From NCBI RefSeq assembly GCF_030028105.1, contig NC_092371.1:165719358-165783357 (forward strand): 64,000 bases of DNA, in the 5' to 3' direction. Both the position numbers and the translations under genes were made by a program. This document shows, one piece after another, positions 2,901 to 39,800 of the stretch. Source of the DNA: Mobula birostris. Its lineage: Eukaryota. The notes below the pieces were generated by a model. That model made no database searches and was not told the origin of the DNA. It saw nothing but the letters and a program-made list of their open reading frames with translations. Every line of letters starts with the position of its first letter. The first letter of the stretch is position 1.

Positions 2901-2944
2901 GTGATCGTGGGGCGCCGGGCGCCGGTCAGTCCCGTGTCCCTCAC

Positions 2945-3185
2945 CTTCCCAGATGAACTGGCCACGGATCCGCTTGCCGAATTTGAACCAGAACCTCTCG
3001 GCGCAGCGCTCTTGCAGCACCACCTCGCCACACCAGAAGGAAGGCTCGTTCACTGCGCTGCTCGCCGGCTGCATCGGCACCGCTCGCTGCGGATCCCAGT
3101 GCCCCAGCTCCGGCCTCGACCCGCACACGAACAGCTGGGCATCGTGGTCAGCCAGCGTCACCACCACCCCGAACCGCAGCAGCAT
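2945..3185 (-). CDS. EPM2A: Laforin (glucan phosphatase) coding exon 1, CBM20 carbohydrate-binding domain; rest of gene lies left of the window or in the gap
   Basis: Translation MLLRFGVVVT...LFVCGSRPELGHWDPQRAVPM...EPSFWCGEVVL...FWFKFGKR...WEG matches the laforin N-terminus (MRFRFGVVVP...VGSRPELGRWEP...FWYKFLKR...WEG). It ends TGG GAA G/gtgagg, a phase-1 donor at 2944, in CpG-rich sequence. Confidence 0.95.
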
Positions 3186-7165: not shown

Positions 7166-7171
7166 TTTATT
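7166..7171 (-). terminator. Candidate distal polyadenylation signal AATAAA of SELENOL
   Basis: tttatt on + strand, about 150 nt downstream of the SECIS in transcript direction. Confidence 0.6.
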
Positions 7172-7321
7172 GCCTTGCAGAGAAAGTTTCATTGACCATT
7201 ACAGAAGTTGGTTTGCTGCACCCAAATTCGTTGTATTCGATTTTCATTTGAAAAAATAATTCCATCCTTCACAACCCGCGCACCTTCAAGATGACGCTCT
7301 GTTTAAAGGCGAGGTCTCTGT

Positions 7322-7396
7322 CTGTTCTATAGTTACATCGAGTGGTGCCATTCAGATAGTCTGAGTGACAGCACCACTGTCATCCACATAAAACAG
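7322..7396 (-). promoter_or_regulatory. SECIS element (type II, non-canonical apical CAC) in the SELENOL 3' UTR
   Basis: Sense RNA: CUGUUUUAU-GUGG-AUGAC-AGUGGUGCUGU-CAC-UCAGA-CUA-UCUGA-AUGGCACCACU-CGAU-GUAACU-AUAGAACAG. It has a 9-bp helix I, an AUGAC/CGAU core with tandem G.A pairs, an 11-bp helix II and a 5-bp apical minihelix, and lies downstream of a gene with in-frame UGAs. Confidence 0.88.
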
Positions 7397-8818
7397 GCTG
7401 AGACCTGGCCCCCCTTCTCACTGCTCTCTACCTCCCACCAAACACACTCAGACCCTGACAATTACAAGGAGGAAAAAAACCCAAACTTCTCAACGCCAAT
7501 CGAAAGAAAATTTAACTCATCCTTTCCCAGTGTGATTCTAGCACACAGAGAGAACAGAACAAGAGGTCATAGGTTAAGGATGAAGGGTGAAATATTTAAG
7601 GGGAACCTGAGGGAGAACATCTTCATCCAGACGGTGGCAGGAGTGTGGATGGGGGCTCAACTGTAGCATTGAAGAGAAGCTTGGATGAGAGGGGTTTGGG
7701 TGTGGGTAGATGGGTCTAGGCAGAAAAAGAGTTCAGTACAGACTAGATGGGCTGAAGGATCTGCCTCTAAGACGGTCATGTCCTAAATTTATTTTTCTGG
7801 AAGCATATATCTTCCTCTTAAAACCTCTGGATGTAAAACAAAAGAAATATTCTGAAGATACTTCACAAACAAGAGAAAATCTGCAGATGTTGGAAATCAG
7901 AGTAACAGCTAAAATGCTGCCTGGCCAGCTGAGTTTCTCCAGCATTTTAGGTGCGTTACTGAAGATACTTAATTCCAATTCACCCCAGCCATTTCACATT
8001 AAGGGACAGATGATCACTCCAGATGTGTGATGTTGCCTCGCCAACCCCAGCCTTACCGCACCAAAAACACCCAATTGATATTCCACCATAACCTGTGAGC
8101 AGGTGATCCCTTCTTGCCCAGTTACTGAGGAAACAAAGTCAATCCAATTCTGTTCTGCAGATAGGTTGAACGAACTAGGGCCCTTCTCTCTGGAGCAAAG
8201 GAGGATGAGATAAATTGATAGAGGCATACAAAATGAAAAGACGCATAGATCGTGTACAGACTTTTCTCCCCCAAGGTGGAAATGGCTAACATGATGGAGC
8301 ATAATTTTAAAGTGATTGGAGGAAAGTAAAGGGGGATGTCAAGACAAGTCCTCTAATACAGAGAGTGGCAGGTGCATGAAATGCCCCGCCAGGGGCAGTA
8401 ATAGAGGCAGATACATTAGACATTTAAGAATTTCTAGGATAGGCCTGTGAATGATGGAAAATAGGAGGGCTATGGGGAAGAGAGGGGTTAGATCGATTTT
8501 AGAATGGGTTAAAAGGTTGTCACAACATGGTGGGCAGATGAACCTGCACTGTGCTTTAATGCTCAATATTCAATTCTACACACAAGCTTCTCTTGAATAT
8601 CCGTGGAGCTCCCGTTCCCATTTAGAGCCAAACAAGTCAATGGAGAAAGCAGAACTCTTACTGTGTTAAGGCATTAGACTTGTCACTTTTCATTTGCATG
8701 TTATGTTGAATTGCATAGATTAGTTTAGCAAAGAACAGGAATATAGAATCAACGTTACTAAAACTACAGCTGAAGATTTTTCCCTTCCTGCAACTTCTCA
8801 CACTCTACAGAAACTGCT

Positions 8819-8929
8819 TTATCTCATGGCTTTCAGTATTTCTGCCACGTTAGGTCGATCAGTTGGTTTGGCACTTGGGTGGAAGAAAATGATGGTCCCT
8901 TGTTGATCCAATCCAAAGTCACCACCAAG
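8819..8929 (-). CDS. SELENOL: SELENOL exon 9, last coding exon ([11 protein letters not shown]...[16 protein letters not shown])
   Basis: ctccccaacag acceptor; GGDF and DRP motifs; TAA at 8821-8819. Confidence 0.93.
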   Translation of the reverse strand, partial: LGGDFGLDQQGTIIFFHPSAKPTDRPNVAEILKAMR

Positions 8930-11900
8930 CTGTTGGGGAGAAGAATAAAGAAAGACCCTTCTCAATTTAAGAGTGATTAAAGATCAGTTATGTCACATGT
9001 ACATTGAAACAGAGTGAAATGTGTTGTTTGTGTCAATGACCAACACAAAGGCCGTGCTGGTGGCTGCCCATGTGTCACCACGCTTTCCGACAGCAATGTG
9101 TCCATAACTCACTCACCCTAACTCGACGATTTTGGAATGTGGGAAGAAACGGGGGCACGAGGAAAGCCACACGGTCACGTTGAGAACGTACAAATTCCAG
9201 TGGGAATTGAACCTCAGTTGGAGATTGCTGCTACTGTAAAGCGTTACACTAACAGCCATGCTACCTGAACCAGGTGGCAGTTTGGGGAGGCTCTATAATG
9301 CCTGTCAATCTGAAGTACAATTATAAAGTGCCCCCACAGGACTGCGGTGGACCCTCTGCCCTGATTGCAAATGAAAGCAGATGATGCTTCGTTCTCATTG
9401 CAGTTGGGCACGGGGAGTAAAAGTATTCAACCAAAGTGACACCAAGTTCTCAATGAAAGAAAACAGAAGAGTACAGCACAGTCCAGGACCTTCGTTGACC
9501 TCTAACCTACTCCAAGGTTAATCTAACCCTTCTCTCTCTCATAGCCCTCCGTTTTTCTATCATTCATTCATATGTCTATCTAAGAGTCTCATAAATGTCA
9601 CTAACGTAACTGCCTCTAATACCACCCCTGGCAGTGTGTTCCATGCACATCTATCACTCTCTGTGTAAAAAAAACCTCCCTATACTTCCCAACAATCACC
9701 TTAAAATTATGCCCCCTTCTATTAACTATTTCCACCAGGGAAAAAGTCTCTGGCTTTTCATTCCATGTCTATGCTTCTTGTCATCTTGTACACCTCTATC
9801 AAGTCTCCTCTCACCCTCCTTCGCTCTAAAGAGAAGAGCCCCTTCTCACTTAACCTAACCTCGTAAGACATGCTCTCTCATCCAGGTAGTCATGGTTCTT
9901 GAACTCAGTTGCCCAACTAATTAAGACCAACACACCAGACACCTTCTCAACAACCCTATCAACCCGCATGGCAGCTTTGGAGGATCGCTCCGTTCCTCCG
10001 CACTGCTAAGAATCCTGCCATTAACAGCGTACTCTGCCTTCCAAAGTGAACCACTTCACACTTTTGTGAACAGAACTCCATCTGCCACTTCTCAGCCCAG
10101 CCCTGTCAATATCCTGTTGTAACCTACAGTAGCCTTTTACACTATCTGCAAACCAATTTGTCCATTTTCCACAAACTGCAGGGGTCCCAGAGCAGATCCC
10201 CATGGAATACCACAAGTCACAGACCTCCAGGCAGAATAGGTCCCATCGATTGTCACCCTTTGCTTCCTGTGGGCAAGCCAGTTCTAAATCCACGCAGCCA
10301 AGATTCCCTGGATCCCATGCCTCTTGAAAGGTGATATCATTTTTCAAACGCCGATTTAAAACATCAAGTATATTCTGGAGAGTGGGATGGAGGTGTGAAT
10401 GAACTCTTTACCTGGTTGGTTAATAACAAGCACTGAACTAACCTGGTGCACATCATCGGGGTGTGTGCTACTTGGTAAGAGTCGATTGCTGACTATTTGT
10501 TCAGCATAATAAGTAATCACATCGATATTCCAGACCTTCTGAATGGACACTCCCAATCCAAACGCATGGTACAACTGGAAAAGACACAGACAAGATGCCC
10601 ATTTTGACTCAGTGCTAACTCGCTATTTTAATATAATAAAATTTGATTTCCTGTTCAAATCCACCCATATTCTATGGAGGGGAATAAAGAGTCGGTGTTT
10701 TGGGCGGAGACCCTTCATCAGAACTGGAATGGAAGGGGACGGGAGCCTGAAAAAGAAGGTGGAGGGAGGGGGAAGAGGACAGGCTGGTGGGTGCTTGGTG
10801 AGACCAGGTGAGGGGGAGGCAGGATGAAGTGAGCTCGGAGATGATGGGTAGAATAGCTGATAGGAGAGGCGAGTGGACCATGAGAGAAAGGGAAGGATGA
10901 GGGGCATCAGAGGAAAGTGAAGAGAGGGGAGCCAGAATGGAAAATGGAGAAAGGACAGGAAAGGAATGGAGGGTTATGGGCTGAGTGCAAGTCAGTGGGA
11001 CTGGGTGAGAGTAAGAGTTCAGCACGGACTAGAAGGGCTGAGATGGCCTGTTTCTGTGCTGTAATTGTTATATGGTTGTATGGAAAAGGGGGAGGGAAAG
11101 CAATTACCGGAAGTTAGGGAGATTGGTGTTCATGCCGTCAGGTTGAAGGCGGAATATGAAGTGGGGAGCAATTTGGGAAACTCTAAACGGGTCGGCACTG
11201 GCTTGGTGGGTCAAATTACCCGCAGCTTAGGATCACCGTATCTATTTGGGGACCCAATGAAAACACTCAAAAGTGCAAGTCACCTGCCGACTGGGATCCA
11301 GCAACATGTCATAGGGGCAGTTAGTCTCCTGAAGCCACTGAACAGCTCCATCCCGACACCCAAACGCGACCAGCAAGACCTTCAGGGGCACAGCATCCAG
11401 GCAGCTCTGTGTGAAACACAACAACCTCTCAATAACTACACCACCAATAGACTCAACGGAAAAAAAAACACCACGAAGCAAAATTCACAGGACCCATATT
11501 AATACAACTGATCTAACTTTGAGGTTGCCTCTGTTAGAAATAGCCAGAGAACTTAACACGGTGCACAGCCTTAAGTTGATCTGAAGGATTCAGTGGGAAG
11601 GCTACGAGGAAGAGGAGCCGTACCTGGCGTGCCTGCAGCTCTGCCAGGTGATCTCGTCACGGGAGTCAGGCAAAGTGCCTGAGCAGGACCAGCAGCAGCT
11701 TCTTCTCATCCTGCAGCAACTCACCCAGTTGAATTTCTCTGAAATGCAAACCGGAATGAGGAGAGATTAGAAACCCAGCCTGCTTAACCCACACAGCACT
11801 GGACTTAACTTTATTCAGAGGGAGTTCATTCTGCAGGAAAAGACCACATTCATACGACAGAGCACCTCAAGGGAGCAGTGGGGAAAGGATCAATGGAGGG

Positions 11901-14900
11901 ATTAGAACAGTACAGTGTAGGACAGGCCCTCGGCCCACAGTGTTGTGCCGACACCTTAGCCTACTCCGAGATCAATCTAACCGTTTCCTCCCACGTAGCC
12001 CTCCATTTCCCTTTCATCAATGACCTAAGATTCTCTCAAATGTCTCTCACACATCTGCATCTACCACCATCCCTGGCGTTCCTTGTACACTTAACTCTCC
12101 ATGTAATAAAAACCTACCTCTGACACTCCCCTACTTTCCTGCAATCACTTTAAAATTATGCCCCTTGTACTAGCCCTTGGGGGGGGGGGGGAATCACTGC
12201 TTGTCCACTCTATGCCTCTTAATATCATATAGACCTCTATCAAGTTACCTCTTACTAATCCAAGTTGAAAAGCCTGAGCTCGCTCAACCTATTCCCATAA
12301 TACGTGCCCCTCCCACAAGGGCAGAAGGACTGAAGTGATGGGCTGATGGAGTGTTAGAGCTAATTGGAAAGGTGTGATTATGGGGCTAGGAGGCTGCAAA
12401 GGGCTGAATGGCCTACTCACATTTGTGATTGCGTGAGTATAGTTTTCTTTCTTTCTTTTTCAATCTTTTTATTAATTTCAAAATATAGAAACAAAACATA
12501 GCAATAATACAGATAATATAAGATGTATTGTTACATTTAAAAAAAGAGTAATTGCAAAACCAAATAGTGGAAATTATCAAAACTCCCATACATGTAGAAC
12601 TGATCACGGATAATATAAAGCAAAAAAAAAGGAAAAAGACAAAAAAAAGAAAAAAAAACCCATCCCAAAAGAAAAAAAAACTAAACTAAAAGACTTGGGC
12701 AAAACTAACAACTTAAAAATGGAAAAGAAGAAAACCTCAGCGTCGACGATTCCATTCCCCTCCAACAACAGTACAGAGAGATAAAACAAGTTTGGAAATG
12801 ATCAAATTACATCAAATGAAAATGCTGAATAAATGGCCTCCAAATTTTTTCAAACTTAATAGAAGGGTCATAAACTGCACTTCTAATTTTCTCCAAATTC
12901 AGACACAGCATAGTTTGTGAAAACCAATGAAATACTGTAGGAGGGTTGATCTCTTTCCAATTCAACAAGATTGACCTTCTAGCTACTAAAGTAAGAAATG
13001 CAATCATCCTTCGTGATGAAGAGGTTAAATTATTTGAGTCTATCATTGGTAATCCAAAGATAGCTGTAATTGGATGAGGTTGTAAGTCTAGATTTAGGAC
13101 CGTTGAAATAATATCAAAAATATCTTTCCAATATTTCTCCAACAAGGGACATGACCAAAACATGTGAGTTAAAGAAGCAATCTCAGACTGGCATCTGTCA
13201 CATATTGGATTAATATAAGAGTAATAACGAGATAGTTTATCTTTGGACATATGAGCCCTGTGAACTACTTTAAACTGTATCAACCTATGCTTAGCACATA
13301 CAGAGGATGAATTCACCAACTGAAGAATTTTTTCCCATTTTTCAGTCGGTATATTAATCTCAAGTTCTCTTTCCCAGTCAGCTTTAATTTTATTAGAGGC
13401 ATCAGGACATAAATTCATAATTATATTATATACAATTGCTATTACACCTTTCTGAGAAAGATTTAAGTCTAAGATTTTTTCCAAAGTGTCCATTGGATAT
13501 GGGTGTGGAAAATTAGGAGAGACAGTAATTAAAAAGTTTCTAATCTGTAAATATCTAAAAAAGTGAGATCTGGGTAAGTTATATTTATTAGAGAGTTGAT
13601 CAAAAGACATAAAACAGTTATCCAAGAATAAATCACGAAAAGATATTATACCTATGAGTATAGTTTCGAATATGTAATCTTCTTCAACAACTAATTAATA
13701 GCATGAAACACAAGAGGCATAGATGCTGGAACCTGGAGCAACAAAGACCTGCTGGAAGAACTCAGCAGGTTGGGCAGCAGCTGTGGGGAAAAAAAACAAA
13801 TTGTCGACATTTCAGGTCAAATTCCCGGACAAATCCTTTCCACCCACAGATTCCGCTCAGCCTGCCGAGTTCTTCCAGCAGGTTGCCTTAGTTGTTTGTT
13901 GTAACTCAGCTTGCCAAGTTATGAACGGGATCTTTAGGCAGCTACTGAGCCAGTTTACCTGGAGTATATCTGGGATTGTTACCTCATGGCATTGAGTATG
14001 TACAATCATTTACCTTTCAGTTCTTACATCAGTGAGCACAAGGCCTCTAGGCACCTGTGTCCCCATTGTCAGCTGGGCTTGGAAAGAATGAGCCTTCATT
14101 CGGCTATCCACATCACCAAGGAAATCATTCCACTCCACCTAAAGATTAAAGAGCAACTTAATTTGTCACACGTGAAATCATTTGGTGAAACGCGTCGTTT
14201 GCGGCAATGACACAGTCTGACAATGTGCTGGTGGCAGCCCTCAAATACCACCATTCTGCCCACAGTTCACTAACCCTAATTGTTTGTCTTTGGAACGTGG
14301 GGGGAAACTGGAGCACTTGGAGAAAACCCACACGGTCCCGAGGAGAAAGTACAAACTCCTCACAGCTGGTGGTGGCGGGGATTGAAGCCAGATCGCTGGT
14401 GCTGTACCGCCCGGGACGTCCACCTCCGCTAAATCCAGAAGTGAGGTTGGAAGCCGGTTTAAAATCCACCCAACCCAAATCCATCCTCTTTAGGACATTG
14501 AAATCCACATCCTTCTGGGAAGAATCATTAGCAAGCAATCTTCCGACGTCTGGCGCAGTAAAACGCACAGCGCTAACCATTACACTCCCGTGTCAGCACT
14601 GTAGTTTCATTTGTCACCGGCAGCTGCCAACAGCTGTTCTGCTGTGGGATGGGCCAGTTTACAAGTTTAATGTTAGTGGAAATAGATTTTGTACCAACAT
14701 TAAACATGACCAGGAGAATCCAGGCACTGACAAAAAATGCAGACAGCTCCCTCCTTTGATCCAGTGTTTACGGACTTTGTGCCCATACCACCAATCAGTG
14801 GCTACAATGTCAACACTAGCCTGACCATGGCCTTGGCACTCAGAAAAAAATCTTCAATTGAAGCAAAAGTCAAGTGGGGGCAGCACTGTGTAATTTTAAC

Positions 14901-17900
14901 CCAATCTGCCTCTGGGTAAACCAGCACTGAACACTGAATTCATCCTCTTCATACAAATTTTACTCTCCAGTGAAGTTGATCTAGGGCTTAGGCATGGAAA
15001 ACACCTTCCACACGACTGGAGTTAGGATCACCTTGATATCTGTAACTCTAGTGAGATGTTACGTAGAAAAATACACATAACTCTACATACAAACTATGTT
15101 CATGACTTGAGTAACATAGAATGTAATAAGCAGAATTACCTCAAACTCCAATAAGTCCTCGACCTGATCCTGTACAGAGACAGAGCTGTTGGATACAAAT
15201 AAATGTACCGGTTTAGCGGCCCAAAGGGTTTTTGAATTTATTCCTCCCCCATCCCAAATTGAAAGCCATCTGATCTCTACAACAGATTAATGGGGGGGGG
15301 GGGCGGGTGGAGGAAGAGGGGAGAGGGATATACAAAGCATCAAGAGTTATGGCACCAAGGCAGGTGGAAGGAAGTAAGATGCAGGTCAGACATGATCTCT
15401 CTGGATTGTGAAAATGTTTTGAGAGTCTGAAAGATCTCCTGTTGCTACAAGACATAGTATAGGAGCATAATTAGGCCATTTGGCACATCAAGCCTTCTCT
15501 ACCATTAAATAATTCCCAATTCTTTGTCCACCCTATTCGCTCATCTTCACTCTGTAAGCCCTTTGCCCCCTTACCAATCCTGACCCTGTCAATACACCCA
15601 GTGACTTGGCCTCAACAGCTGTCTGTGGCAATGAATTCCACAGAATCCCCACCCTCTGGCCAAAGAAACTCCTCATCTTCTGTTTTAAAGCAACATCCTT
15701 TTATTCTGATGCTGTGCCCCCTGATCCTACGTTTTACATTCTCAATGGTCCTACAGAAACAAAACACACTCTAACACTCAGAGATTTACACAATTAAATA
15801 TAACTGCTCAACCTGAGATACTTACTGGTAAAACCTTTTGAACAGATCTTCAGTATCACTTTGCTTCTGCACATGTAAACTTCAAGGGGGAAGAAAAATG
15901 TCTTGATTAGCTCTAACAGAAAAAAATAACCAGGCTGATTTTTTAATCTATTGAGGTTTTTATTAAATAGTTTGACTTAGATATTCACATAAAAGTTGCT
16001 GGTGAACGCAGCAGGCCAGGCAGGTCGAAGTTTTGGGCCTGTACCTCTTCCTAGAGATGCTGCCTGGCCTGCTGCGTTCACCAGCAACTTTTATGTGTGT
16101 TGCTTGAAATTCCAGCATCTGCAGATTTCCTCGTATTTGTGACTTAGATACTCAATTACTTCGCCTTAGTTGGGGTTTTCTTAGTCACAAAATTGAGCTT
16201 TTTGGCCATCAGACTAAATGCTATGTTTGGCGTAAGCCAAACACTGCACATCATCAAAAACGCACCATCCCTACCGTAAAGCACGGCGCGGCAACATCAT
16301 GCTGTGGGGATGCTTCATTGCCACAGGCCCTGGAAGACTTCTGAAGGTAAAGGGGAAAATGAATGCAGCAAAATACAGGGAAATCCTGGAGGAAAACCTG
16401 ATGCAGTCTGCAAGAGAACTGCGACTTGGGAGAAGATTTGTTTTCCAGCAGGACAATGACCCCAAGCATAAAGCCAAAGCTACACAAAAAAAAACAAAGT
16501 TAATGTCTTGGAGTGGCCAAGTCAGAGTCCAGACCTCAATCCAATTGAGAATTTGTGGCTGGACTTGAAAAGATCTGTACACTCATAACCTCCATGCAAT
16601 CTGGCAGAGCTTGAGCTGTTTTGTAAAGAAGAATGGGGAAAAATTGCAGTGCCCAGACGTACAAAGCTGATAGAGACCTATCCACACAGACTCAAGGCTG
16701 TAATTGCTGCCAAAGGTGCATCTACTGACATGAAGGGGGTGAGTAATTATGCAATCAATTACTTTGCATTTAATAATTATAATAAATTTAGTCCAATTTG
16801 AAGAAATTTGTTCTCACTTTGACACGCAAGAGTGTTTTCTGTTGATCAGTGTTAAACAAGCCAAATGAAATCCACTGTGATTCAATGTTGTAAAACAATA
16901 AAACATAACAACTTCCCGGGGGGGGGGGAATACTTTTTATAGGCACTATATATTAAAGCTGTAAAGCTGTCTGGAAATTTCTAAGATTGTGGGCGTAAAT
17001 ATGTATTTCAAAGTGCTAAGTTCAAAGTAAATTTATTATCAAAGGACATTTATGTTACCATATACAACCCTGAGATTAATTTTCTTGTGGGTATTCACAG
17101 TAAATACAAAAACACAAAAGAATTGGGTTTTATAGAAGCATAATGTACAATGGAAGATAGAAAATGCCTGTCAAAAGGGCAATGTTACAATTGTTATGGG
17201 GGAATTTTGATATGCATGCAGATTCGGAAAAATCGGGTTGGTGCTGGATCCCAAGAGGGGGAATTTGTAGAATGCCTATGAGATGGCTCTTTAGAGCAGT
17301 TTGTGGTTGAGTCCATTAGGAGATCAGCTATTTCGGATTGGGTGTTGTGCAATGAACCAGAATTGATTAGAGAGCTTAAGGTAAAGGAATCCTTAGGAAG
17401 CACTGAGTTCTATATAATATGTAATATAATAGAACTCACCCTGCATTTGAGAAGGAGGGTTAAAATCAGATGCATCAGGATTACAGTGGAGTAAAGGGAA
17501 TTACAGAGGAGCTGGCCAAAATTGAATGGAAGGGAAAACTAATGGAAGGGATAAATAACAGCAGAGCAGCAATGGCTGGAGTCTCCAGGAGCAATTCATA
17601 AGGTGCAGGATAGATACATCTCAAATAAGAAGTATTCTAAAGGCAGGAAGATGCAACTGTGGCTAACGAGAGAAGTCAAAGCCAACATAAAAGCCAAAGA
17701 GAGGGCAAATAATAGAGCACAAATTGGTGGGAAGTTAAGAGTATTGGGAAGCTTTTAAAAACCAACAAGGAAACTAGAAAAAGTCATAAAGAAGGAAAAG
17801 ATGGAATATGAAGGCAAGCTAGCCAATAATATTAAAGAGGATACCAAAAATGTCCTCAGATCTATGAAGTGTTAAAGAGAGGTAACAGCAGATATCAGAC

Positions 17901-20900
17901 TGTTGGAAAACGACGCTGGAGGGGTAGTAATGGGGTACAAGGAAAATGGCAGATGAAATTAATAAGTATTTTGCATCCGTCTTCACTGCAGAAGACACTA
18001 GCAGTATGCTAGATGCTCGAGAGTTTCGGGGAGCCAAAGTGAGTAAAGTTGTCTTTACTAGGGAGAAGGTTCTTGGGAAACTGAAAGGTCTTAAGGTAGA
18101 TAAGTCAACTGGCTGGACCAGATGGTATATACCTCAAAGTTCTGAAAGAGGTAGCTGAAGGGATTGTGGAGGCATTAGTAATGATCTTTCAAGAATTAAT
18201 GGATTTTGACATGGTGTTGGAGGACTGGAAAATTTCAAATGTCACTCTGCTCTTCAAGAAGGGAGAGAGGCAGAATAAAGGAAATTATAGACCAGTTAGT
18301 CTGACCTCAGTGATTGTGACAATGTTGGAGTCGATTGTTAAGGATGTGGTTTCGGAGTACTTGAAGGCACATGATAAAAACAAAGTCAGCATGGTTTCCT
18401 TGAGAGAAAATCTTGCCTGACAAATCTGTTGGAATTCTTTGAAAAAATAACAAGCAGGCCCACAGTATTACAGGAAAGATACAAGCATAGATAAAGCATT
18501 GGCTGATTGGCCAAGGGCAAAGAGTAACAATAGAGGGAACCTCTTCTGGTTGCCTGTTGGTGGCGAGTGGTGTTCCAAAGGCTCTGGGCCTATACACACT
18601 GGAATTCAGAAGAATGAGGGGGCATCTCAATTAAACCTATTAAATGTTGAAAGGCCACAATAGAGTCGAGGGGTGGGTGGGCGGGGGTGCGGATTGAACA
18701 GCCTTACTGTTTGAGGAAAATAACTGTTTTTGAGTCTGGTGGTCCTGACGTGGATGCTACACAGCCTCCTCCCTGATGGGAGTGGTGCAAACAGTCCCCG
18801 AGCGGGGTGGGTGGGGTATTACAATACAGTCTTAACTTGAAACATCCTAAGCAAGAATGGTACTCTAAATATTAGGTTTTATTCTCCTTTACAACTCGGC
18901 TTTGGTACGAGGGAACTGACTGTTACTTACTTGTTGAAGAAGTTTGCATAGAGCCGAATCAGTTCAGCCAAAGAGCCTATCTTCTGGGAGACAAATTCAT
19001 GGACCTTCTCTGAAAAACAAATGCCACAGGAGCATAGCGTTTAGTAACAGAAGTTCAACAAGGTTTGGGGCGCTTTAAGAGCCAGCAGCATTGCCGTTAG
19101 CGTGGTGATATTACAGCTCAGGGAGTTGAATTCCGGTGCCGCCTGAAAGGCGTTAGTGGCGTGAACCGCACGGGTTTCCTCCGGGTGCTCCGGTTTCCTC
19201 CCAAAGTCCAAAGACGCACTGGTCAGTCGGTTAATTGGTCAATGTAAATTGTCCTGTGATTAGCCTTGTGTTAAAAGGGTGGGTTGCTGGGTGGTGTAGC
19301 TCATTGGGCTGGAAGAGCCTATATCTCCAAATTAATAAAAAGTGGGATTAAAAAACACACATGGATGAACTCAGCAGCTATGGAGAGGAATGGAGAGCTG
19401 ATATTTCTGGCTGAGACCCTTCATCAGAACCACTGTTTAAAAATCCACAACACTGTGACACCACAAAGGCAAGGAATATTTAGCCTATTTCTAACTGAGC
19501 TGGTTCTAAGACGTCATAAATTTGGTCACTTCTTTAAAAAGTAAAATTAGCTGAAGTGTGAAAACCAATTCACACAATGCGGCTAGCATTTCGGGGATGA
19601 GGTCAGTCCTAATGACGAGACTCGGCATAAAACATCGTCTATTTATTTCATACTGCCTGACCTGTGAAGTTTCTCCAACGTTGGCAGAATCCTGTGTTTG
19701 TGTTTTGATAACACAAACAACAGGAATTCTGCAGATGCTGGAAATTCAAGCAACACACATCAAAGTTGCTGGTGAACGCAGCAGGCCAGGTGATGTTAGG
19801 AAGAGGTACAGTCGACGTTTCAGGCCGAGACCCTTCATCAGGACTAAAGCTCCATCCCTCCCCCTCCTGTCTTTTCCTATCATTTTGGATCTCCCCCTCC
19901 CTCTCCCACTTTCAAATCTCTTACTAGTTCTTCCTTCAGTTAGTCCTGACGAAGGGTCTCGGCCTGAAACGTCGACTGTACCTCTTCCTAGAGATGCTGC
20001 CCGGCCTGCTGCGTTCACCAGCAACTTTGATGTGTGTTGTTTGTGATTTGATATTTATTTGTTACTCCACTGCCTCAAATGGGTCACTTTTTCACTTTTG
20101 TTTCTTCTGCCACCTGAACTTGACATGTCGCAACAGAAATTTGCTGTGTGCAAGTAAACAAGGGACACCAAAGGATCAGCTTTCAGTAATGACTATTGCC
20201 AATGCACTCTCAATGAGGAATTATGCCAGCATCACCATTAGGTGGCGCTCCCTCTCTGCTCTGCAGCTCTTCACCCTTCACAACCGTCACCAGTGCTTTA
20301 CATTTCCTCAACACAAGATCCTGCAGATGCTGGAAACCCGAGGCAGAACACTCAGCAGCGCTCGAAGAACTCAGCAGGTCAGGCAACATGAATAAACAAC
20401 TGACGTCTTTGGGCTGAGACCCTTCTTCAGGGGTGGAAAGGAAGTGGGAAAACACCAGAAAAAGGTGGGGGGGGAGCTGAAAGTGATGGGTAAAGCCAGG
20501 TGGGTGGGAAAGGTAAAGGGCTGGAGGAGAAAATAGGAGAGGAGAGTGGACCATGGGAGAAAAGGCAGGGGAAGTGATAAGGCAGGTGAGGAGGGATCAG
20601 AGTGGGGAAGAGGAGGAAGGGAGGGGGAAGTAAAAAAAAATGCCAGATGGCACTAAATGGGCAGGTGTAGCATTTCCATCACTTGAAGAGGTGGGCGCCA
20701 GGAGTAAGATTAGTGGGGAGGGACAAACGGACAAGGGAAGTAGAGGGAGTTCCCTGCAGAAAGTTGGGGGGGGGTAAAAGATATGTTTAGTGATAGAATC
20801 CCTTTGGAGATGCACAAGTTGTGCAGGATGATGTGTTTATGGGGTGGTCGGTGTGGACAAGGGGAATTGTATCCCTGTGAAAGCAGTGGGAAGATGGGGT

Positions 20901-21467
20901 GAGCGCGGATGTCCAGGAAATGGAGGAGATGTGGGTGAGGGCAGTTTCTCAACCACCTGGCTTCACCTATCACCTTCCAGCTGGTCATAGCAAGGAGGAG
21001 GAGAGGACAAGTGGAGAAAAGGTGTGGAGATAGGATGCAGATGGAGAAGGAAGATAGTGTTAATGGGACAGGCAGAAAGAAGGGAGTGGAGGCTGGGGTG
21101 AAGACAGGGAGACGGAGGATGTCGGTGGGAATGAGGAAAGAGCGGGGGAAAGTATCAGGTTGGGGGATGGAGAGAAGGGGCGACTGAAAGGGAAGGGGAG
21201 ATGGGGTGGGGGAGGGGAGAAGAAGGGGTACCGTCTCTCTCGACATGTTGATGCAGGGCCGGCCGCATGTTTCAGGTTTGAGCACCTCTTTCTCCGTCCC
21301 CCTTCCCGTCCCGTCCCGTCCCGCCCCGCCCCGCCCCGTCCCCCGGGAACAGCACCTCCGGCGCTCTCCGCCCTCGCCGCCGCCAGGATCCTCCGGCCAC
21401 CCTGCGACAAGTCCTCGAGAGCCCGCAGCAGCTCCGCTTCTCCCGGCACCGGACCGCACTCCTCCAT
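8819..21467 (-). CDS. SELENOL: Selenoprotein L, complete 9-exon CDS (897 nt, 298 aa, Sec163 and Sec166 in a U-L-P-U motif; thioredoxin-like/AhpC-TSA fold)
   Basis: Exons 21467-21356, 19009-18931, 15879-15826, 15185-15140, 14138-14014, 11738-11624, 11406-11284, 10574-10443, 8929-8819 all have GT-AG boundaries with consistent phases (1,2,2,0,2,0,0,0). The joined translation contains [33 protein letters not shown] and DRP, the hallmark features of fish selenoprotein L. Confidence 0.95.
10443..10574 (-). CDS. SELENOL: SELENOL exon 8 ([10 protein letters not shown]...DDVHQ)
   Basis: tcttttccag acceptor, gttagt donor, 132 nt. Confidence 0.93.
11284..11406 (-). CDS. SELENOL: SELENOL exon 7 ([16 protein letters not shown]...MLLDPSRQ)
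   Basis: tttcacacag acceptor, gtgact donor, 123 nt. Confidence 0.93.
11624..11738 (-). CDS. SELENOL: SELENOL exon 6 with both Sec codons (TGA at 11668-11666 and 11659-11657)
   Basis: tttgcatttcag acceptor, gtacgg donor; reads [36 protein letters not shown]. Confidence 0.95.
12446..13654 (-). mobile_element. 5'-truncated L1/Tx1-clade LINE in SELENOL intron 5
   Basis: 272-aa ORF2 C-terminus with zinc knuckle (CDRC...HMFWSC), A-rich tail, TSD TGAGTATAGTTT at 12434-12445 and 13655-13666. Confidence 0.9.
14014..14138 (-). CDS. SELENOL: SELENOL exon 5 ([14 protein letters not shown]...LTDVRTE)
   Basis: tttaatctttag acceptor, gtaaat donor, 125 nt. Confidence 0.9.
15140..15185 (-). CDS. SELENOL: SELENOL exon 4 ([15 protein letters not shown])
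   Basis: tatccaacag acceptor, gtaatt donor, 46 nt. Confidence 0.9.
15826..15879 (-). CDS. SELENOL: SELENOL exon 3 ([17 protein letters not shown])
   Basis: cttcccccttgaag acceptor, gtaagt donor, 54 nt, phases 2/2. Confidence 0.88.
16185..16950 (+). mobile_element. Tc1-like transposon, 3' part
   Basis: MLWGCF...[11 protein letters not shown] transposase motif; terminal gaatacttttt...ggcacta resembles a Tc1 TIR. Confidence 0.88.
17160..18670 (+). mobile_element. Degraded CR1 LINE ORF2 fragment
   Basis: Fragments [24 protein letters not shown] with many stops and frameshifts. Confidence 0.85.
18931..19009 (-). CDS. SELENOL: SELENOL exon 2 ([26 protein letters not shown])
   Basis: ttgtttttcag acceptor, gtaagt donor, 79 nt. 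Confidence 0.9.
19085..19330 (+). mobile_element. V-SINE-type SINE
   Basis: Contains the V-domain-like core gggtttcctccgggtgctccggtttcctccc..agtccaaagac; antisense relatives lie near 1860-1970, 9100-9260 and 14270-14410. Confidence 0.75.
19810..19845 (-). ncRNA. Minimal type I hammerhead ribozyme motif (sense to SELENOL pre-mRNA)
   Basis: AGUC-CUGAUGA-AGGGUCUCGGCCU-GAAAC-GUC-GACU: stem I AGUC/GACU, intact catalytic core, short stem II, palindromic loop-less stem III. Confidence 0.75.
19942..19977 (+). ncRNA. Minimal type I hammerhead ribozyme motif
   Basis: AGUC-CUGACGA-AGGGUCUCGGCCU-GAAAC-GUC-GACU, same architecture as the inverted partner. Confidence 0.75.
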
Positions 21468-24754: not shown

Positions 24755-27700
24755 GTCAGGACCACTGGATACAATAGACAACCACAACAGATTTGCAGCT
24801 GAAGTGTTGCCTCACTTGGAGGGACTGTTTGGGGCCCTGAATAGAGGTGAGGGAGGAGGTGAATAGACAGATGTAGCACTTGTGGCCGCTTGCCAAACAG
24901 GGAGGGATGAATGTACCAAGGAATCTCGGAGGGAGTGATCCCTGCATAGAGCAGGTGTGTTTGGAGGCAAGTGGGATCTCTTTGGAGATGGCAGAAGTTG
25001 TGGAGAATGACCTATTGATGCAGAGGCTGATGAGGTGGTAGGTTAGTACAAGAGGAACTCTCTCTGTTAAGCGAAGATGGGAATGAGTGCAGAGGGTGAG
25101 AAATGGAGGAGATGTAGGTGAAGGCAGCATCAATGGTGGAGGAAGGGAACCCCCATTCTTTGCAGGAGAACATCGCTGATGTTCTGGAATGGAAAGCTGC
25201 ATACGGGGAACAGATGCGGGAGAGATGAAGGAACTGAGAAAAGGGAATAACATTTTTTTTTAATTTTAATTTTATTTGGATAAGGAATTCACAAATATCA
25301 TGTACTTTTTTCACACATATACCCTTTTCCATTTTTTTATATGTATAAAACTACAATTATTTATACATTCTTAAGTACACATTGAGATGATATAAAAGGA
25401 AAATAAACATTTAAATAGATAATTATGTACTGTGGTAAATCTAACCTATTAGGCTAAGTAATGGAATTAGTTGTTAAGAAAAATGGTAATAATAGTTTCC
25501 ATATAACCCTTCTGGACCATTTCCACTGGTCCAAAATGTTGTATATAAGCCTATGTACCAACCATTGTAGGTGTTTATATCCTAATTTGTTCATGCTTGC
25601 TCCTGCCCGCAGACATAATTATCCAATCCCTATGTACTTATTTACTTAATTTTTTCATTTTTTTATCCCTTTCCCAAATCTTTCCCTTTACTTGTGTTAA
25701 TTCTCTATTTTCCAAAAGAAAACAAAAAAAACAAACATTTAGACTAGGGGTGCTTACGTTAGCAATATTACTGTGTTGATGAGAAGAGCAGTATAAATCA
25801 TTAGGAGAGTCATCTAAAGTCTGCTCGCATTGGGGTTATATATTCAATCCATTTATTCCAGATTTGATAAAATTTTTCTTTTTGAGTTCTCAGGGAGTAA
25901 GTCAACTTTTCCATTTTAAATATTTCCAAGATAATTTCGTACCAATCTTCTAATGTAGGTGGTATTGGATTTAGCCATTTTCTAGTGATTGATTTCTTAC
26001 TTGCCGCTAAGAGGGCCTGCAGCAACTTTATATCTTCCTTCTGTTCAAGAAACAATACATGCCCCAAATAGAGCGTCTCAAAGTTCAGAGGTATCTGGGA
26101 CCTAAGTACCTTAACTAATGTTCTATGAATACCTTCCCAAAATAGCCTTAATTTAGGGCAATCCCAAAAAATATGAAAATGATTTGCCTCCTTGGAGCCG
26201 CACCTTCTCCAACACATCACATTTGTATCTTTATATTTTTCCTGATATGGGGTCTTGAAGTATCTTATAATGTTTTTCCAACAATGTTCTCTCCAAGTCA
26301 AAGAATTAGTCGAGGACCATTGAAAGCTGCAGATTTTCCCCCAAGCCTCCTCTGAAAGTACCAACCCTGCTTCTTTCTCCCACTTCTCTTTAATATACAG
26401 TGTATTTACATTTTTAGCATGGGAGAGTGCATTATATAATCGAGAAACTGATTTACTAGGTATTGAACTGCAAGCCGAATTCAGAATCTTGAAAAATTCT
26501 AATTCCACTGTTGATAGGTCTGTATATCTACAACTCTGGTTAACATGGTTTCGTACTTGAAGGTACCTAAAAAAGTCATTATGTTCTAGGCCATGTTTGT
26601 CCTGCAGGATTTGGAAACTTTGTAATACTCTTTTATCTATAAGTGAGAGGTAGGTTGTAAGACCTTTCTTTATCCATAGCTCAAATCTTTTATCTCCTCT
26701 GTTGGGAAGGAATTCGGTATCATATGCACACCATCTAAAGAGTTTTAACATGTTATTAATTCCACATGAGTTAACCACCTTCTGCCATACTTTTAATGTA
26801 AGATTTATCCAAGCGTTTTAAAATTTTTCCAACTGGGCCATCAATCCTTTGTCAGCTATTGAGGCCTGAAGAGGAAAACTTTCAACTAAGCCAAATTCTA
26901 TTTCCTTCCATCTAGCCTTATATTCCCTATTACACCAATATAACAGAGGGGTTATCTGTGAGGCATAAAAATAATTTCTCAGGCAAGGAAGAACCATACC
27001 TCCTCCTTCCTTCCCTAACTGTAAGGTGTTATATCGAATTCTAGGTTTCTTTCCTTGCCAAATGAAGCGGGGAATCCATTTGTCCCATTCCCTGAATTGA
27101 TTATCATCCACCTCCACCGGTAAAGTATGGAAAAGATACAATAACCGAGGAAGAATGTTCATTTTTATAGTATTTATCCTTGAATTTAAACTTAAAAAGG
27201 GGATAAGATTCCATCTATGCATATCTGCTTTTATCTCTGAGATTAATGGCCCATAATTTACCTGTGACAGTGTTGAAAGATCCTTCAGCAGGGTTATTCC
27301 TAAATATTTTAATGATTTAGCTTCCCACTTAAGATCATATGTATCCTGCAACTTTTTGGATGGTGTATAATTTAGGGACATAACCTGCGTTTTCTTTACA
27401 TTTATTTTATAACCTGATATTTTCCCAAAGTCATCCAACAGTGTAAACAATCCTATAAATGATTTTTCTGGTTCACTCAGATAGACCAAAACATCATCTG
27501 CGAATAATGCCACTTTCTGTTCAATCCCTGCCACCTTGATACCTTTTACGATTTCGCTCTGTCTTATTAGTTGGGCAAGCGGTTCAATATATAGCGCAAA
27601 AAGGAGAGGAGAAATTGGGCATCCCTGTCTAGTGCCTCTCTCTCAGATAAAGGAGTCAGAGAGGTCCCCATTTATCTTAATTCGGGCTGTAGGGCTGTCA

Positions 27701-32889: not shown

Positions 32890-34975
32890 AGATATTTTTG
32901 GATTATAGATATTCAAATCACCATCCAGTAATAGCTACCATCAAAACAAAATTAAAGAAAATGAAACATAAGCAACAATTCAAAACAGCGGTAGAAGAAA
33001 ACCTCAATGAAAACTAAACAACACCTATTTGGGACAGATTTAAATATGCTATATAGCAATCAGCAGAGGAGATAATCCTAGTACAAGAAATCTAACACAC
33101 CAAGGGGTGGATAACCCAAGAAATTCTAGATCTGATAGAACAAAGAAGGTTAGTGAAGAATAATGAACTGCAATGCAGAGAGCCGGACGGACGGACCAGA
33201 CAATTGTGCAATATTGCAAAGGAAGAATGGCTGAATCAAAAATGCAATGAAGTAGAGGCCATATTAACAACAGCAAAGAAATGCACAAGAAAATTAAGGA
33301 AATTACTGGAATTAAGAAAACCTCCTCTACAGGATGCATAAGATCAGTAGATGAATCCATACTAACAGATCCAGATAAAGTATGTGAGAGGTGGATTCAG
33401 TATATAGAGCAGCTTTTTGAAGATAATAGAGGGGAACCCCCAGATATTAAACACCTAATCCTGGCCCACCTATTACCAAAAAAGAAATAACTAAGGCAAT
33501 GAAAAACATGAAACATGGAAAAGCCACTGGACCTGATGAAATTTCAGTGGAAATGATACAAGCCCTAGAAGATCTGGGCATAGATATTCTCTTTGAACTG
33601 TTTAATGGCAGACATGAGTCTGGTGTATTGCCTGACAATCTCTTGAAACAGTATTTATAACTCTGCCAAAAATTTCTAGAACTACTGACCGCAAAAATTA
33701 TAGAACAATCAGTCTTATGAGTCACATAATAAAGATTTTGTTGAGAACTGTTCTGAGTCAAATTAAAAACAAGTTAAAGCCAGAAACTTCTAAGCTGCAA
33801 TATGGGTTTACTGAGGATAGAGGAACTAGGAACACAATTTTCATACTACGAATGCTTTCAGAAAGGGCAATTGAATATCAAAATGATGTCTTTTTATGTT
33901 TTATTGATTTCACTAAAGCATTCGACGAAGTGCAACATGAAAAATTATTTCAAATTCTCGCTAAACTAAACATTGACAGAAGGGACCAACAACTACTTCA
34001 AAATTTATATTGGAATCAAACGGCGGCAGTAAAATTTGATGATAATATAAGCAGTTGGACTAAAATTCAAAGAGCAGTTAGACAGGGATGCGTTGCCTCA
34101 CCAAAACTATTTAATATCTATAGTGAAATGATTCTCAGAGAAACAGAAGACCTAGATGGGATAAAAATTGGAGGTGTTAACATCAACAATATAAGATATG
34201 CAGATAATACCACCCTAATAGCAAGTGCTGCAGAAGACCTACAAATCCTCCTAGACAAAGTGGTACAAACAAGTACAGATGTTGGTCTAACCATCAACTG
34301 TAAAAAAAATGTATGGTGAAATCAAAACAACAAGGATGCTCCCAACTGCCAGTTGTACATCAGTAACCAAGAGATTGAACAAAAGACCAGCTTTAATTAC
34401 CTTGGTATCTTTATATCACAAGATGCTAAAAGTAAAGTAGAAATAAAAAGAATTGCCATTGCCAAAACCAACTTACAAAAAATGAAACCCAATTTTACCA
34501 ACAGACACATTTCCATGACAATAAGGCTTGGGCTACTAAAATGTTACATCTGGTCAATCTTGCTGTATGCTTCCAGAACACGGATTATAACACCAGAACT
34601 CCAAAGAAACTTAGAAGCAACAAAAATGTGGTTTCTTAGAAGAATGTGGAAAATATCATATAGAGATAGGGTAACTAATGAGACAGTACTCCAACGTGCC
34701 CATACAAAAAGATCTTTAATGAGAACACTAAATGAGAGGAAACTTAAATTCCTGGGCCATGTCATCAGAAAGGGAGAAATAGAATGCCTTACATTACAAG
34801 GCCGTATGCCTGGGAAACATGGAAGAGGAAGGCAAAGAAAAAAATATTTGGACACTGTGAAAGAAATAACAGATCTAAATGTGCAAGATATCATTGACGC
34901 TGCAAGGGATTGTTCGATGTGGACAGCCATGATCGCCCAAGCGTGTAATGCACAAGGCACATGAAGATGATGATA
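32890..34975 (+). mobile_element. RTE-clade LINE, RT domain, frameshifted
   Basis: FIDFTKAFD, VRQGCVASPKLFNIY, NNIRYADN; (gat)n tail at about 34965-34975. Confidence 0.9.
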
Positions 34976-36864: not shown

Positions 36865-39800
36865 TTAGACCTGCAGGAGGAATTTAAAAGGAGATCATTT
36901 TTTCTTCAGCGGTTTGATCGCGGCATGACTGCGCAGGCGCGTGAACGTCAGCGAGTTAGACTGGCAGGAAGAATTTTAAAAGACAGCTTTATAGAGCGGA
37001 GGGCTTTGGCTCAATGGGGTTTCGGCGATAATGCGTGGAGGCGAGGTAAGTTACCTGTGAAGAACAGGAATACTGAGAAACATAGAAAATAGGTGCAGGA
37101 GTAGACTATTCGGCCCCTCGAGCCTGCACCACCATTCAGTATGATCATGGCTGATCATCCAACTCAGAACCCTGCACCAGCCTTCTCTCCATACCCCCGA
37201 TCCCTTAGCCACGAGGGCCTTATCTAACTCCCTCTTAAATATAGCCAATGAACTGGCCTCAACTGTTTCCTGTGGCAGAGAATTCCACAGAATCACCACT
37301 CTCTGTGTAAAGAAGTTTTTCCTAATCTCGGTCCTAAAAGGCTTCCCCTTTATCCTCAAACTGTGACCCCTCGTTCTGGACTTCCCCAACATTGGGAACA
37401 ATCTTCCTGCATCTAGCCTGTCCAATCCCTTTAGGATTTTATACGTTTCAATCAGATCCCCCCTCAATCTTCTAAATTCCAACGAGTATAAGCCTAGTCG
37501 ATTCAGTCTTCCATCATATGAAAGTCCTGCCATCCCAGGAATCAATCTGCTGAACCTTCTTTGTACTCCCTCTATGGCAAGGATGTCTTTCCTCAGATTG
37601 GGGACCAAAACTGCACACAATACTCCAGGTGTGGTCTCACCAAGGCCTTGTACAACTGCAGTAGTACCTCCCTGCTCCTGTACTCGAATCCTCTTGCTAT
37701 GAATGCCAGCATACCATTCGCCTTTCTCACCGCCTGCTGTACCTGCATGCCCACTTTCAATGACTGGTGTATAATGACACCCAGGTCTCATTACACCTCC
37801 CCTTTTCCTAATCGGCCACCATTCAGATAATAATCTGTTTTCCTGTTTTTGCCACCAAAGTGGATAACCTCACATTTATCCACATTAAATTGCATCTACC
37901 ATGAATTTGTCCACTCACCTAACCTATCCAAGTCACCCTGCATCCTCTTAGCATCCTCCTCACAGCTAACACTGCCGCCCAGCTTCGTGTCATCCGCAAA
38001 CTTGGAGATGCTGCATTTAATTCCCTCATCCAAGTCATTAATATATATTGTAAACAACTGGGGTCCCAGCACTGATCCTTGCGGTACCCCACTAGTCACT
38101 GCCTGCCATTCTGAAAAGGTCCCGTTTATTCTCACTCTTTGCTTCCTGTCTGCCAACCAATTCTCTATCCACATCAATACCTTACCCCCAATACCATGTG
38201 CTTTAAGTTTGCACACTAATCTCCTGTGTGGGACCTTGTCAAAAGCCTTTTGAAAATCCAAATATACCACATCCACTGGTTCTCCCCTATCCACTCTACT
38301 AGTTACATCCTCAAAAAATTCTATGAGATTCGTCAGGCATGATTTTCCTTTCACAAATCCATGCTGACTTTGTCCGATGATTTCACCACTTTCCAAATGT
38401 GCTGTTATCACATCTTTGATAACTGACTCTAGCATTTTCCCCACCACCGATGTTAGGCTAACCAGTCTATAGTTCCCTGGTTTCTCTCTCCCTCCTTTTT
38501 TAAAAAGTGGGGTTACATTAGCCACTCTCCAAACCTCAGGAACTAGTCCAGAATCTAAAGTGTTTTGAAAAATTATCACTAATGCATCCACTATTTCTTG
38601 GGCTACTTCCTTAAGCACTCTGGGATGCAGACCATCTGGCCCTGGGGATTTATCTGCCTTTAATCCCTTCAATTTACCCAACACCACTTCCCTACTACCA
38701 TGTATTTCCCTCAGTTCCTCCATCTCACTGGACCCTCTGTCCCCTACTATTTCCGGAAGATTATTTATGTCCTCCTTAGTGAAGACAGAACCAAAGTAAT
38801 TATTCAATTGGTCTGCCATGTCCTTGCTCCCCATAATCAATTCACCTGTTTCACTCTGTAGGGGACCTACGTTTGTCTTAACCAATCTTTTTCTTTTCAC
38901 ATATCTATAAAAGCTTTTACAGTCAGTTTTTATGTTCCCTGCCAGTTTTCTCTCATAATCTTTTTTTCCCCTTCCTAATTAAGCCCTTTGTCCTCCTCTG
39001 CTAAACTCTGAATTTCTCCCAGTCCTCAGGTGAGCCACTTTTTCTGGCTAATTTGTATGCTTCTTCTTTGGAATTGATACTATCCCTAATTTCCCTTGTC
39101 AGTCACAGGTGCACTACCTTCCTTGATTTATTCTTTTGCCAAACTGGGATGAACAATTGTTGTAGTTCATCCATGCGATCTTTAAATGCTTGCCATTGCA
39201 TATCCACCGTCAATCCCTTAAGTGTCATTTGCCAGTCTACCTTAGCTAATTCACATCTCATACCTTCAAAGTTACCTTTCTTTAAGTTCAGAACCTTTGT
39301 TTCTGAATTAACTATGTCACTCTCCATCTTAATGAAGAATTCCGCCATATTATGGTCACTCTTAACCAAGGGGCCTCTCACGACAAGATTGCTAATTAAC
39401 CCTTCCTCATTGCTCAATACCCAGTCTAGAATAGCCTGCTGTCTAGTTGGTTCCTCGACATGTTGGTTCAAAAAACCATCCCGCATACATTCCTCTTCCT
39501 CAGCACCCTTACCAATTTGGTTCACCCAATCTACATGTAGATTGAAGTCACCCATTATAACTGCTGTTCCTTTATTGCACGCATTTGTAATTTCCTGTTT
39601 AATACCATCCCCAACCTCACTACTACTGTTAGGTGGCCTGTACACAACTCCCACCAGCGTTTGCTGCCCCTTAGTGTTATGCAGCTCCACCCATATCGAT
39701 TCCACATCCTCCCGGCTAATGTCCTTCCTTTCTATTGTGTTAATCTCCTCTCTAACCAGCAATGCTACCCCACCTCCTTTTCTTTCATGTCTATCCCTCC

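Follow-up and report, generated by a model that had tools for sequence, protein, structure and literature searches.

A gene with two in-frame UGA codons raises the question of which element in its mRNA has both of them read as Sec. The question arises for SELENOL of the ray Mobula birostris, located in the 64,000-nt stretch of contig NC_092371.1 analyzed here (the window; positions are counted from its first letter). A preliminary description of this DNA had pointed to a SECIS-like hairpin downstream of the coding region, with CAC in place of the usual apical AA, as the only SECIS that could be found for the two UGAs. Papers are cited below by PMC number, as excerpted.

The SELENOL gene and its UxxU motif

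SELENOL consists of nine coding exons at 21467-8819 on the minus strand, amounting to 897 nt and 298 amino acids, and all of its introns are GT-AG. The only in-frame stops are UGA codons 163 and 166, in the motif RHFA-U-LP-U-RDH.

21356..21467, minus strand, exon 1, with the ATG at 21467
18931..19009, minus strand, exon 2
15826..15879, minus strand, exon 3
15140..15185, minus strand, exon 4
14014..14138, minus strand, exon 5
11624..11738, minus strand, exon 6, with UxxU (UGA at 11668-11666 and 11659-11657)
11284..11406, minus strand, exon 7
10443..10574, minus strand, exon 8
8819..8929, minus strand, coding part of exon 9, with the stop UAA at 8821-8819 and a C-terminus as in P0001 and P0002

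At the protein level the gene is ordinary: it shares the thioredoxin/AhpC-like fold and the RHFAUxxUR motif with the SELENOL family, for which UxxU in an AhpC/thioredoxin-like protein is the mark of membership. The NCBIfam model SelL_rel_redox was matched by three of the five exons tested, and Pfam AhpC-TSA_2 weakly by one of the five. Exon 6 aligned with SelL_rel_redox (NF040769) at an E value of 2.4e-11 and 43.6 bits, a score that belongs to a 38-aa piece and lies below the whole-protein cutoff of 120. A protein search with the UxxU exon gave 0 of 46 candidates, and a PDB search with the same exon gave no significant match. The last junctions and the C-terminus were confirmed by two spliced relatives, P0001 (93% identity in exon 8) and P0002, and the closest named protein, bamboo shark Selenoprotein L (UniRef name), is 73% identical to P0001. 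The motif regex matched 15 of 152 homologues, nine with WxxW and four with CxxC; the WxxW forms are consistent with gene callers that may have read UGA as Trp. The database model of SELENOL from Chiloscyllium punctatum (P0157) lacks the UxxU segment, 19 residues in all, as is typical of misannotated selenoproteins.

The 3' region of SELENOL is bounded by the next gene on the same strand.

2943..3185, minus strand, first exon of EPM2A (laforin), matching laforin 4rkk (E value, 6.8e-11) and CBM_20

Predicted fold of the hairpin

The hairpin had been described as a 9-bp helix I, an AUGAC/CGAU core, an 11-bp helix II and a 5-bp minihelix, and folding reproduced each of these parts at 7396-7322 on the minus strand. 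The fold has an MFE of -28.3 kcal/mol (z score, -4.15), with none of 200 shuffles equally stable, and its prediction did not change across four sequence contexts of 75 to 451 nt. Helix I also runs on, beyond what had been described, via 7-bp and 6-bp segments to 7413/7305, and the extended hairpin (7413-7305) reaches -50.6 kcal/mol (z score, -5.26; 0/200 shuffles).

7305..7413, minus strand, whole SECIS hairpin with extended helix I, from folding against shuffles
7388..7396, minus strand, 5' strand of helix I, 9 bp, paired with 7330-7322, from sequence and fold
7386, minus strand, U three bases 5' of AUGA, a secondary conserved SECIS position, from sequence (PMC2761289, PMC2647825)
7379..7383, minus strand, 5' side of the core, A-UGAC, kink-turn and expected SBP2 site, from sequence and pair probabilities
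7368..7378, minus strand, 5' strand of helix II, 11 uninterrupted bp, from fold and pair probabilities
7365..7367, minus strand, unpaired apical bulge CAC at the usual AA(R) position, unpaired with probability 0.95-1.0
7352..7364, minus strand, helix III of 5 bp (7364-7360/7356-7352) with the 3-nt loop CUA, the type II apex, from the fold
7341..7351, minus strand, 3' strand of helix II, from fold and pair probabilities
7337..7340, minus strand, 3' side of the core, CGAU, from sequence and pair probabilities
7322..7330, minus strand, 3' strand of helix I, from the fold

A helix I that closes the internal loop and a helix III at the apex, as expected of type II, are both present, and the segment 7396-7322, as folded in the model, is a type II SECIS by structural definition. 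Pair probabilities range from 0.85 to 1.0 for helix II and from 0.76 to 1.0 for helix III, and the claim that CAC at 7367-7365 is unpaired was upheld by values of 0.95-1.0 for these bases. The sole AA of the apex (7352-7351) lies on the 3' side and is paired in the dominant fold. In the core, UGAC at 7382-7379 faces CGAU at 7340-7337 in U.U, G.A, A.G and C.C pairs; these include the invariant tandem G.A/A.G of a UGAN/NGAN core, stacked directly below helix II, and an unpaired purine, A7383, precedes UGAN. A rival hairpin, UGACAG/CUGUCA, in which the core would be buried, had a probability of 0.00 in the four contexts and was 8.9 kcal/mol worse when forced.

Several features that had not entered the search criteria are present nonetheless: AUGA has a U 3 nt ahead of it, helix II starts with purine-pyrimidine pairs, and the pair on top of the tandem GA is non-Watson-Crick. 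U is found at the upstream position in 65% of human SECIS elements (PMC2761289), and the first two pairs of helix II, A-U and G-C, have the purine-pyrimidine character whose preference is described in PMC1874613. At 11 bp, helix II is within the published range of 11 to 16 bp but at its lower limit (PMC2647825). The hairpin had been called a textbook type II fold, a label that overlooks its fourth quartet pair, C.C, which departs from KGAW, a consensus of frequency rather than an invariant (PMC2647825). C.C still counts as non-Watson-Crick, and SBP2 binding depended on such a pair at this position in PMC1874613.

The CAC apex among published forms

The bulge begins 11 nt past the quartet, within the SECISearch spacing of 11 to 13, and its apical dinucleotides at offsets 11, 12 and 13 are CA, AC and CU. 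These contain neither the AA sought by the strict, default and loose patterns nor the alternatives of the loose+ pattern (AR|CC), which covers the CC form. CAC is one substitution away from AAC, CAA or CCC, and the predicted fold is the same for all of them.

The apical norm had been given as AA(R), with CC variants in mammalian SELENOM and SELENOO. AA is indeed the majority form: in a survey of 44 vertebrates it was almost universal, the exceptions being the CC of mammalian SelM and SelO, and the conclusion drawn there was that only mammals gave rise to non-AA forms (PMC3316567). The list of CC elements is longer, however, since the excerpts also place CC in human TXNRD3 (PMC2761289) and in Ciona savignyi DsbA, the relatives of which carry AA (PMC2874816). 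The claim that CAC is an unusual variant was overstated: it belongs to neither the AA nor the CC form, but it falls inside published consensus descriptions. SECISaln gives the apical motif as a "run of Ms," where M is A or C (PMC2647825), a criterion satisfied by CAC at 11 nt above the core, and PMC3328465 mentions three unpaired bases that are adenosines or cytidines.

Compared with the canonical type II element (AUGA_AA_GA), the ray element has the same helix I, internal loop, A-UGAN, tandem GA, 11-bp helix II, bulge and helix III, and the same 3' location in a UGA-containing gene; it differs in a CAC bulge without AA or AG, in C.C instead of N.K as the fourth pair and in the lack of an Rfam score. 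With the CC-form elements of mammalian SELENOM and SELENOO, human TXNRD3 and C. savignyi DsbA it has apical cytidines in common, but its apex is a mixed C-A-C without a CC dinucleotide, in a different gene and in a nonmammalian vertebrate. No CAC, CA or AC apex was mentioned in the SECIS literature text searched, a body of excerpts that includes PMC13134290, PMC3473315, PMC12628022, PMC7539508, PMC2375036 and PMC13059024, with query terms other than these letters and figures outside the scope. SECIS sequences of orthologues were likewise not found in this text, and SELENOL, SelL and SECIS were all absent from the supplement of the 2026 vertebrate selenoproteome (PMC13134290). The CAC form may thus have been described earlier.

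Pattern and covariance searches

We re-implemented the four SECISearch1 patterns from the supplement of PMC3753652, without the energy filter, and scanned 8900-5000 on the minus strand. They yielded 0, 3, 2 and 11 cores, 12 of them distinct, and none of the four matched the CAC element. When the apical letters of the strict pattern were freed, the CAC element was the only match in this interval. All four patterns demand AA, AR or CC, and SECISearch3 grading gives CA/AC no credit (PMC3753652), so such elements are missed or downgraded. The expectation that default searches could miss the element was borne out for the re-implemented SECISearch1 patterns but may not extend to the default of SECISearch3, which recommends a covariance model and filters without an apical-letter test (PMC3753652); this program could well detect it.

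The closest counterpart by gene is the zebrafish SelL SECIS, also a single SECIS in a UxxU gene. The SECISearch patterns default, loose and looser did not find it, while its scores in Covels and Infernal were high. This profile is seen in five of 40 zebrafish rows (GPx.14, SelL.3, Fep15.4, TR.11 and SelK.1; PMC3753652), so the likeness is only a lead.

The Rfam SECIS models gave no match to the ray element at the gathering threshold or at an E value of ≤10, in four scans that had no known SECIS as a positive control; SECIS_1 among them is presumably RF00031. The best Rfam matches were miRNA families far below the cutoff, which we dismissed as generic hairpins.

No convincing canonical SECIS was found elsewhere in 8900-5000. 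Upper stems of the 12 cores with AA, AR or CC patterns had energies of -0.5 to -9.9 kcal/mol, compared with -19.0 kcal/mol for the CAC element. Four of them (cores 7192, 8801, 8017 and 6559) folded no better than shuffles (z scores, -0.41 to +2.49); the other eight, seven of which lie beyond the signal at 7171, were rejected on upper-stem energy alone. Core 7192, an AUGAA...AA candidate that matches the loose and loose+ patterns, gave z scores of -0.41 and -0.11 with its AA paired, and its loop is AAUAAA itself, so that cleavage would take off its 3' side. A GUGAG-led hairpin at 8801-8755 (minus strand), right after the stop codon and with a GAAG/CUUC mini-stem, resembles a SECIS but has UAG instead of NGA on its 3' side (z score, -0.19). 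A NUGAN core with at least 10 stacked pairs, one mismatch allowed, occurs only at 7383 in the sense strand of 21500-3186. The CAC hairpin thus stands as the sole convincing candidate for the two UGAs, as had been claimed, although SelL is known to have its two UGAs normally served by one SECIS (PMC3316567), which is not a peculiarity of the ray.

Expectation by chance

Of both strands of the window, the combination of RUGAN, at least 8 stacked pairs and NGAN occurs in the 7396-7322 element alone. The interval from the stop codon to the next gene (5,619 nt) was put through 18,746 dinucleotide shuffles, of which 75 contained a match with 11 pairs, 185 one with 10 pairs and 470 one with 9 pairs, where the 11-pair cut was chosen post hoc with the element already seen. 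A looser, mismatch-tolerant pattern open to any apical letters matched the window 76 times, with a formed stem in 10 cases; the CAC element was second by energy after a GC-rich plus-strand match at 53582 (-24.6 kcal/mol). This pattern produced 32 matches of ≤-19 kcal/mol in 153 shuffled windows (0.21 per window). As such matches are not rare, the position behind a UxxU gene supplies much of the weight: structure by itself is not unique at genome scale, but structure together with position is.

Position of the element and the end of the mRNA

The CAC element lies on the sense strand of SELENOL, 1,422 nt past the stop codon and ahead of an AAUAAA at 7171. The distance from UGA to the core is 1,834 nt, inside the range of 207 to 5,207 nt for mammalian selenoprotein genes (PMC3316567). 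Its sequence occurs once in the window, and repeats upstream of it have lengthened the UTR. Three poly(A) signal hexamers bear on whether it is part of the mature mRNA.

8555..8560, minus strand, AUUAAA on the margin of an interspersed repeat, 5' of the SECIS
7788..7793, minus strand, AAUAAA in an A run, 5' of the SECIS, with no UGUA in the preceding 60 nt
7166..7171, minus strand, AAUAAA with upstream UGUA and U/GU-rich downstream sequence, the likely end of the SECIS-containing mRNA

By a rough count, the best context among four hexamers compared is that at 7171, and the SELENOL mRNA would end there, about 200 nt downstream of the SECIS. The spliced contig of P0002, at 2,558 nt, is close to the predicted 897 plus about 1,670 nt, which is circumstantial; that of P0001 is only 1,819 nt, and a long UTR is not required by it. 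Use of the poly(A) signal at 7793 would exclude the SECIS from the mRNA and leave only the pattern matches at 8801 and 8017, neither above chance.

A possible intron in the 3' UTR was noted from sequence alone on the minus strand, with a donor-like site at 8801 or 8661 and an acceptor-like site at 7455. With this putative intron spliced out, the repeats and both upstream hexamers would be lost and the SECIS would come to lie near the stop codon.

Proposed function and alternatives

SBP2 binds the kink-turn core of SECIS elements, and helix II sets the unpaired apical bases about 11 bp from the core, where Sec insertion needs them. The role of these bases was long unexplained; in a 2022 cryo-EM structure of the selenosome, the SECIS apex reportedly contacts domain 4 of eEFSec. 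In the excerpts of PMC2792357, the apical bases are required yet not contacted by SBP2. We propose that SELENOL mRNA of the ray probably has the CAC hairpin as its one functional SECIS and that both UGAs of UxxU would be decoded as Sec. A and C are similar along one edge, where an exocyclic amine lies beside a ring-nitrogen acceptor, and this would let the CAC bulge stand in for AA(R). AA, CC and CA/AC might then be one "M-M" class, in which single substitutions lead from one member to the next, and not two distinct forms.

Against a working SECIS stand the lack of an Rfam score, the near universality of AA in the survey, the hexamers upstream at 8560 and 7793, the 1,819-nt contig of P0001, the C.C pair off KGAW and a helix II at the 11-bp minimum. 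On balance, the CAC element is very likely the real SECIS of SELENOL, of neither the AA nor the CC form.

The alternative that survives best, although unlikely, is that the SECIS is real but CAC is a damaged, weak form, by recent drift or as a hypomorphic allele, and that full-length SELENOL is therefore scarce. Sec insertion can be lost when the apical motif is mutated (PMC2792357), and two of the three human CC-type elements, those of SelO and TXNRD3, are in the weak class (PMC2761289). However, apical-region swaps in chimeras changed output just 2- to 5-fold, and weak human elements bear a two-part signature of upstream U and first G-C pair (PMC2761289), of which the ray element has the U but not the G-C. 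The reading frame, both UGAs and the long paired stem are, moreover, all intact. As the first G-C pair of the weak elements is absent, our best guess is that the CAC element would be moderately active.

Less likely still, CAC could be a consensus error or a private allele in a species that normally has AAC, CAA or CCC. Each of these is one substitution away and leaves the fold unchanged, but the window is part of a 250.7-Mb NCBI record, the 897 coding bases of SELENOL are free of frameshifts, and an error hitting exactly one of these three bases would be improbable a priori.

We give little credence to the reading in which the mature mRNA lacks the CAC hairpin or makes no use of it and SELENOL relies on another element, such as core 7192. 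The hexamers at 8560 and 7793 would allow for it, and 7192 fits two of the patterns with AA, but the pairing of that AA, the AAUAAA loop and a stability no better than that of shuffles speak against 7192. An mRNA ending at 7793 would keep only 8801 and 8017, both at chance level, the former with UAG, not NGA, opposite its core.

A chance or repeat-derived hairpin that merely resembles a SECIS is the least credible reading by far, despite the 0.21 comparably stable matches per shuffled window under relaxed patterns (32 in 153) and the generic miRNA hairpins as best Rfam matches, given that for the interval after the stop codon just 75 of 18,746 shuffles match, that the hairpin is not repeated in the window and that SELENOL needs a SECIS and no other was found.

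Implications for the apical motif

If the CAC hairpin is the working SECIS of SELENOL, it suggests that the apical position may accept any mixture of A and C. It is possible, and proposed here tentatively, that the mixed CA/AC apex is a third form, fixed and fully active in ray SELENOL and perhaps in cartilaginous fishes or fish SelL. Against this stands the SelM paper, whose abstract reportedly describes mutants apart from AA and CC as inactive. If the third form is real, the apical motif would be read base by base as A or C via a common edge, the origin of C-containing SECIS elements would include nonmammalian vertebrates, and searches with AA/CC patterns would have systematically overlooked a class of real elements. 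The CAC element would be a counterexample to the mammals-only view of non-AA forms and, as a natural variant in an intact double-Sec gene, a ready-made probe of how the apex is read. It refines a known SECIS type and is not a new recoding system.

Other features of the locus

A hairpin formed by 11656-11624 and 11406-11370 (minus strand, spliced) crosses the exon junction, beginning 5 to 8 nt past the second UGA; by analogy it resembles a Sec redefinition element. Against 1,000 synonymous shuffles it was more stable when taken as 60 nt (fraction, 0.021) or 66 nt (0.011), though not as 48 nt (0.214), and it ranked fifth among 279 coding windows. An intronless EXOC8 of 730 amino acids lies at 52663-54855 on the minus strand, where the gene order is EXOC8, SELENOL, EPM2A. 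This EXOC8 groups with those of Mobula hypostoma, Hypanus sabinus and Hemitrygon akajei, in keeping with a myliobatiform ray. LINE-like open reading frames or fragments, labeled by eye, are present at 12807-13610, 25810-27381, 33717-34319 and 37051-43831, one of them within a SELENOL intron. The spacer between SELENOL and EPM2A holds decayed sequence like that of a DNA transposon at about 6870-5000 (minus strand), by eye of the hAT type.
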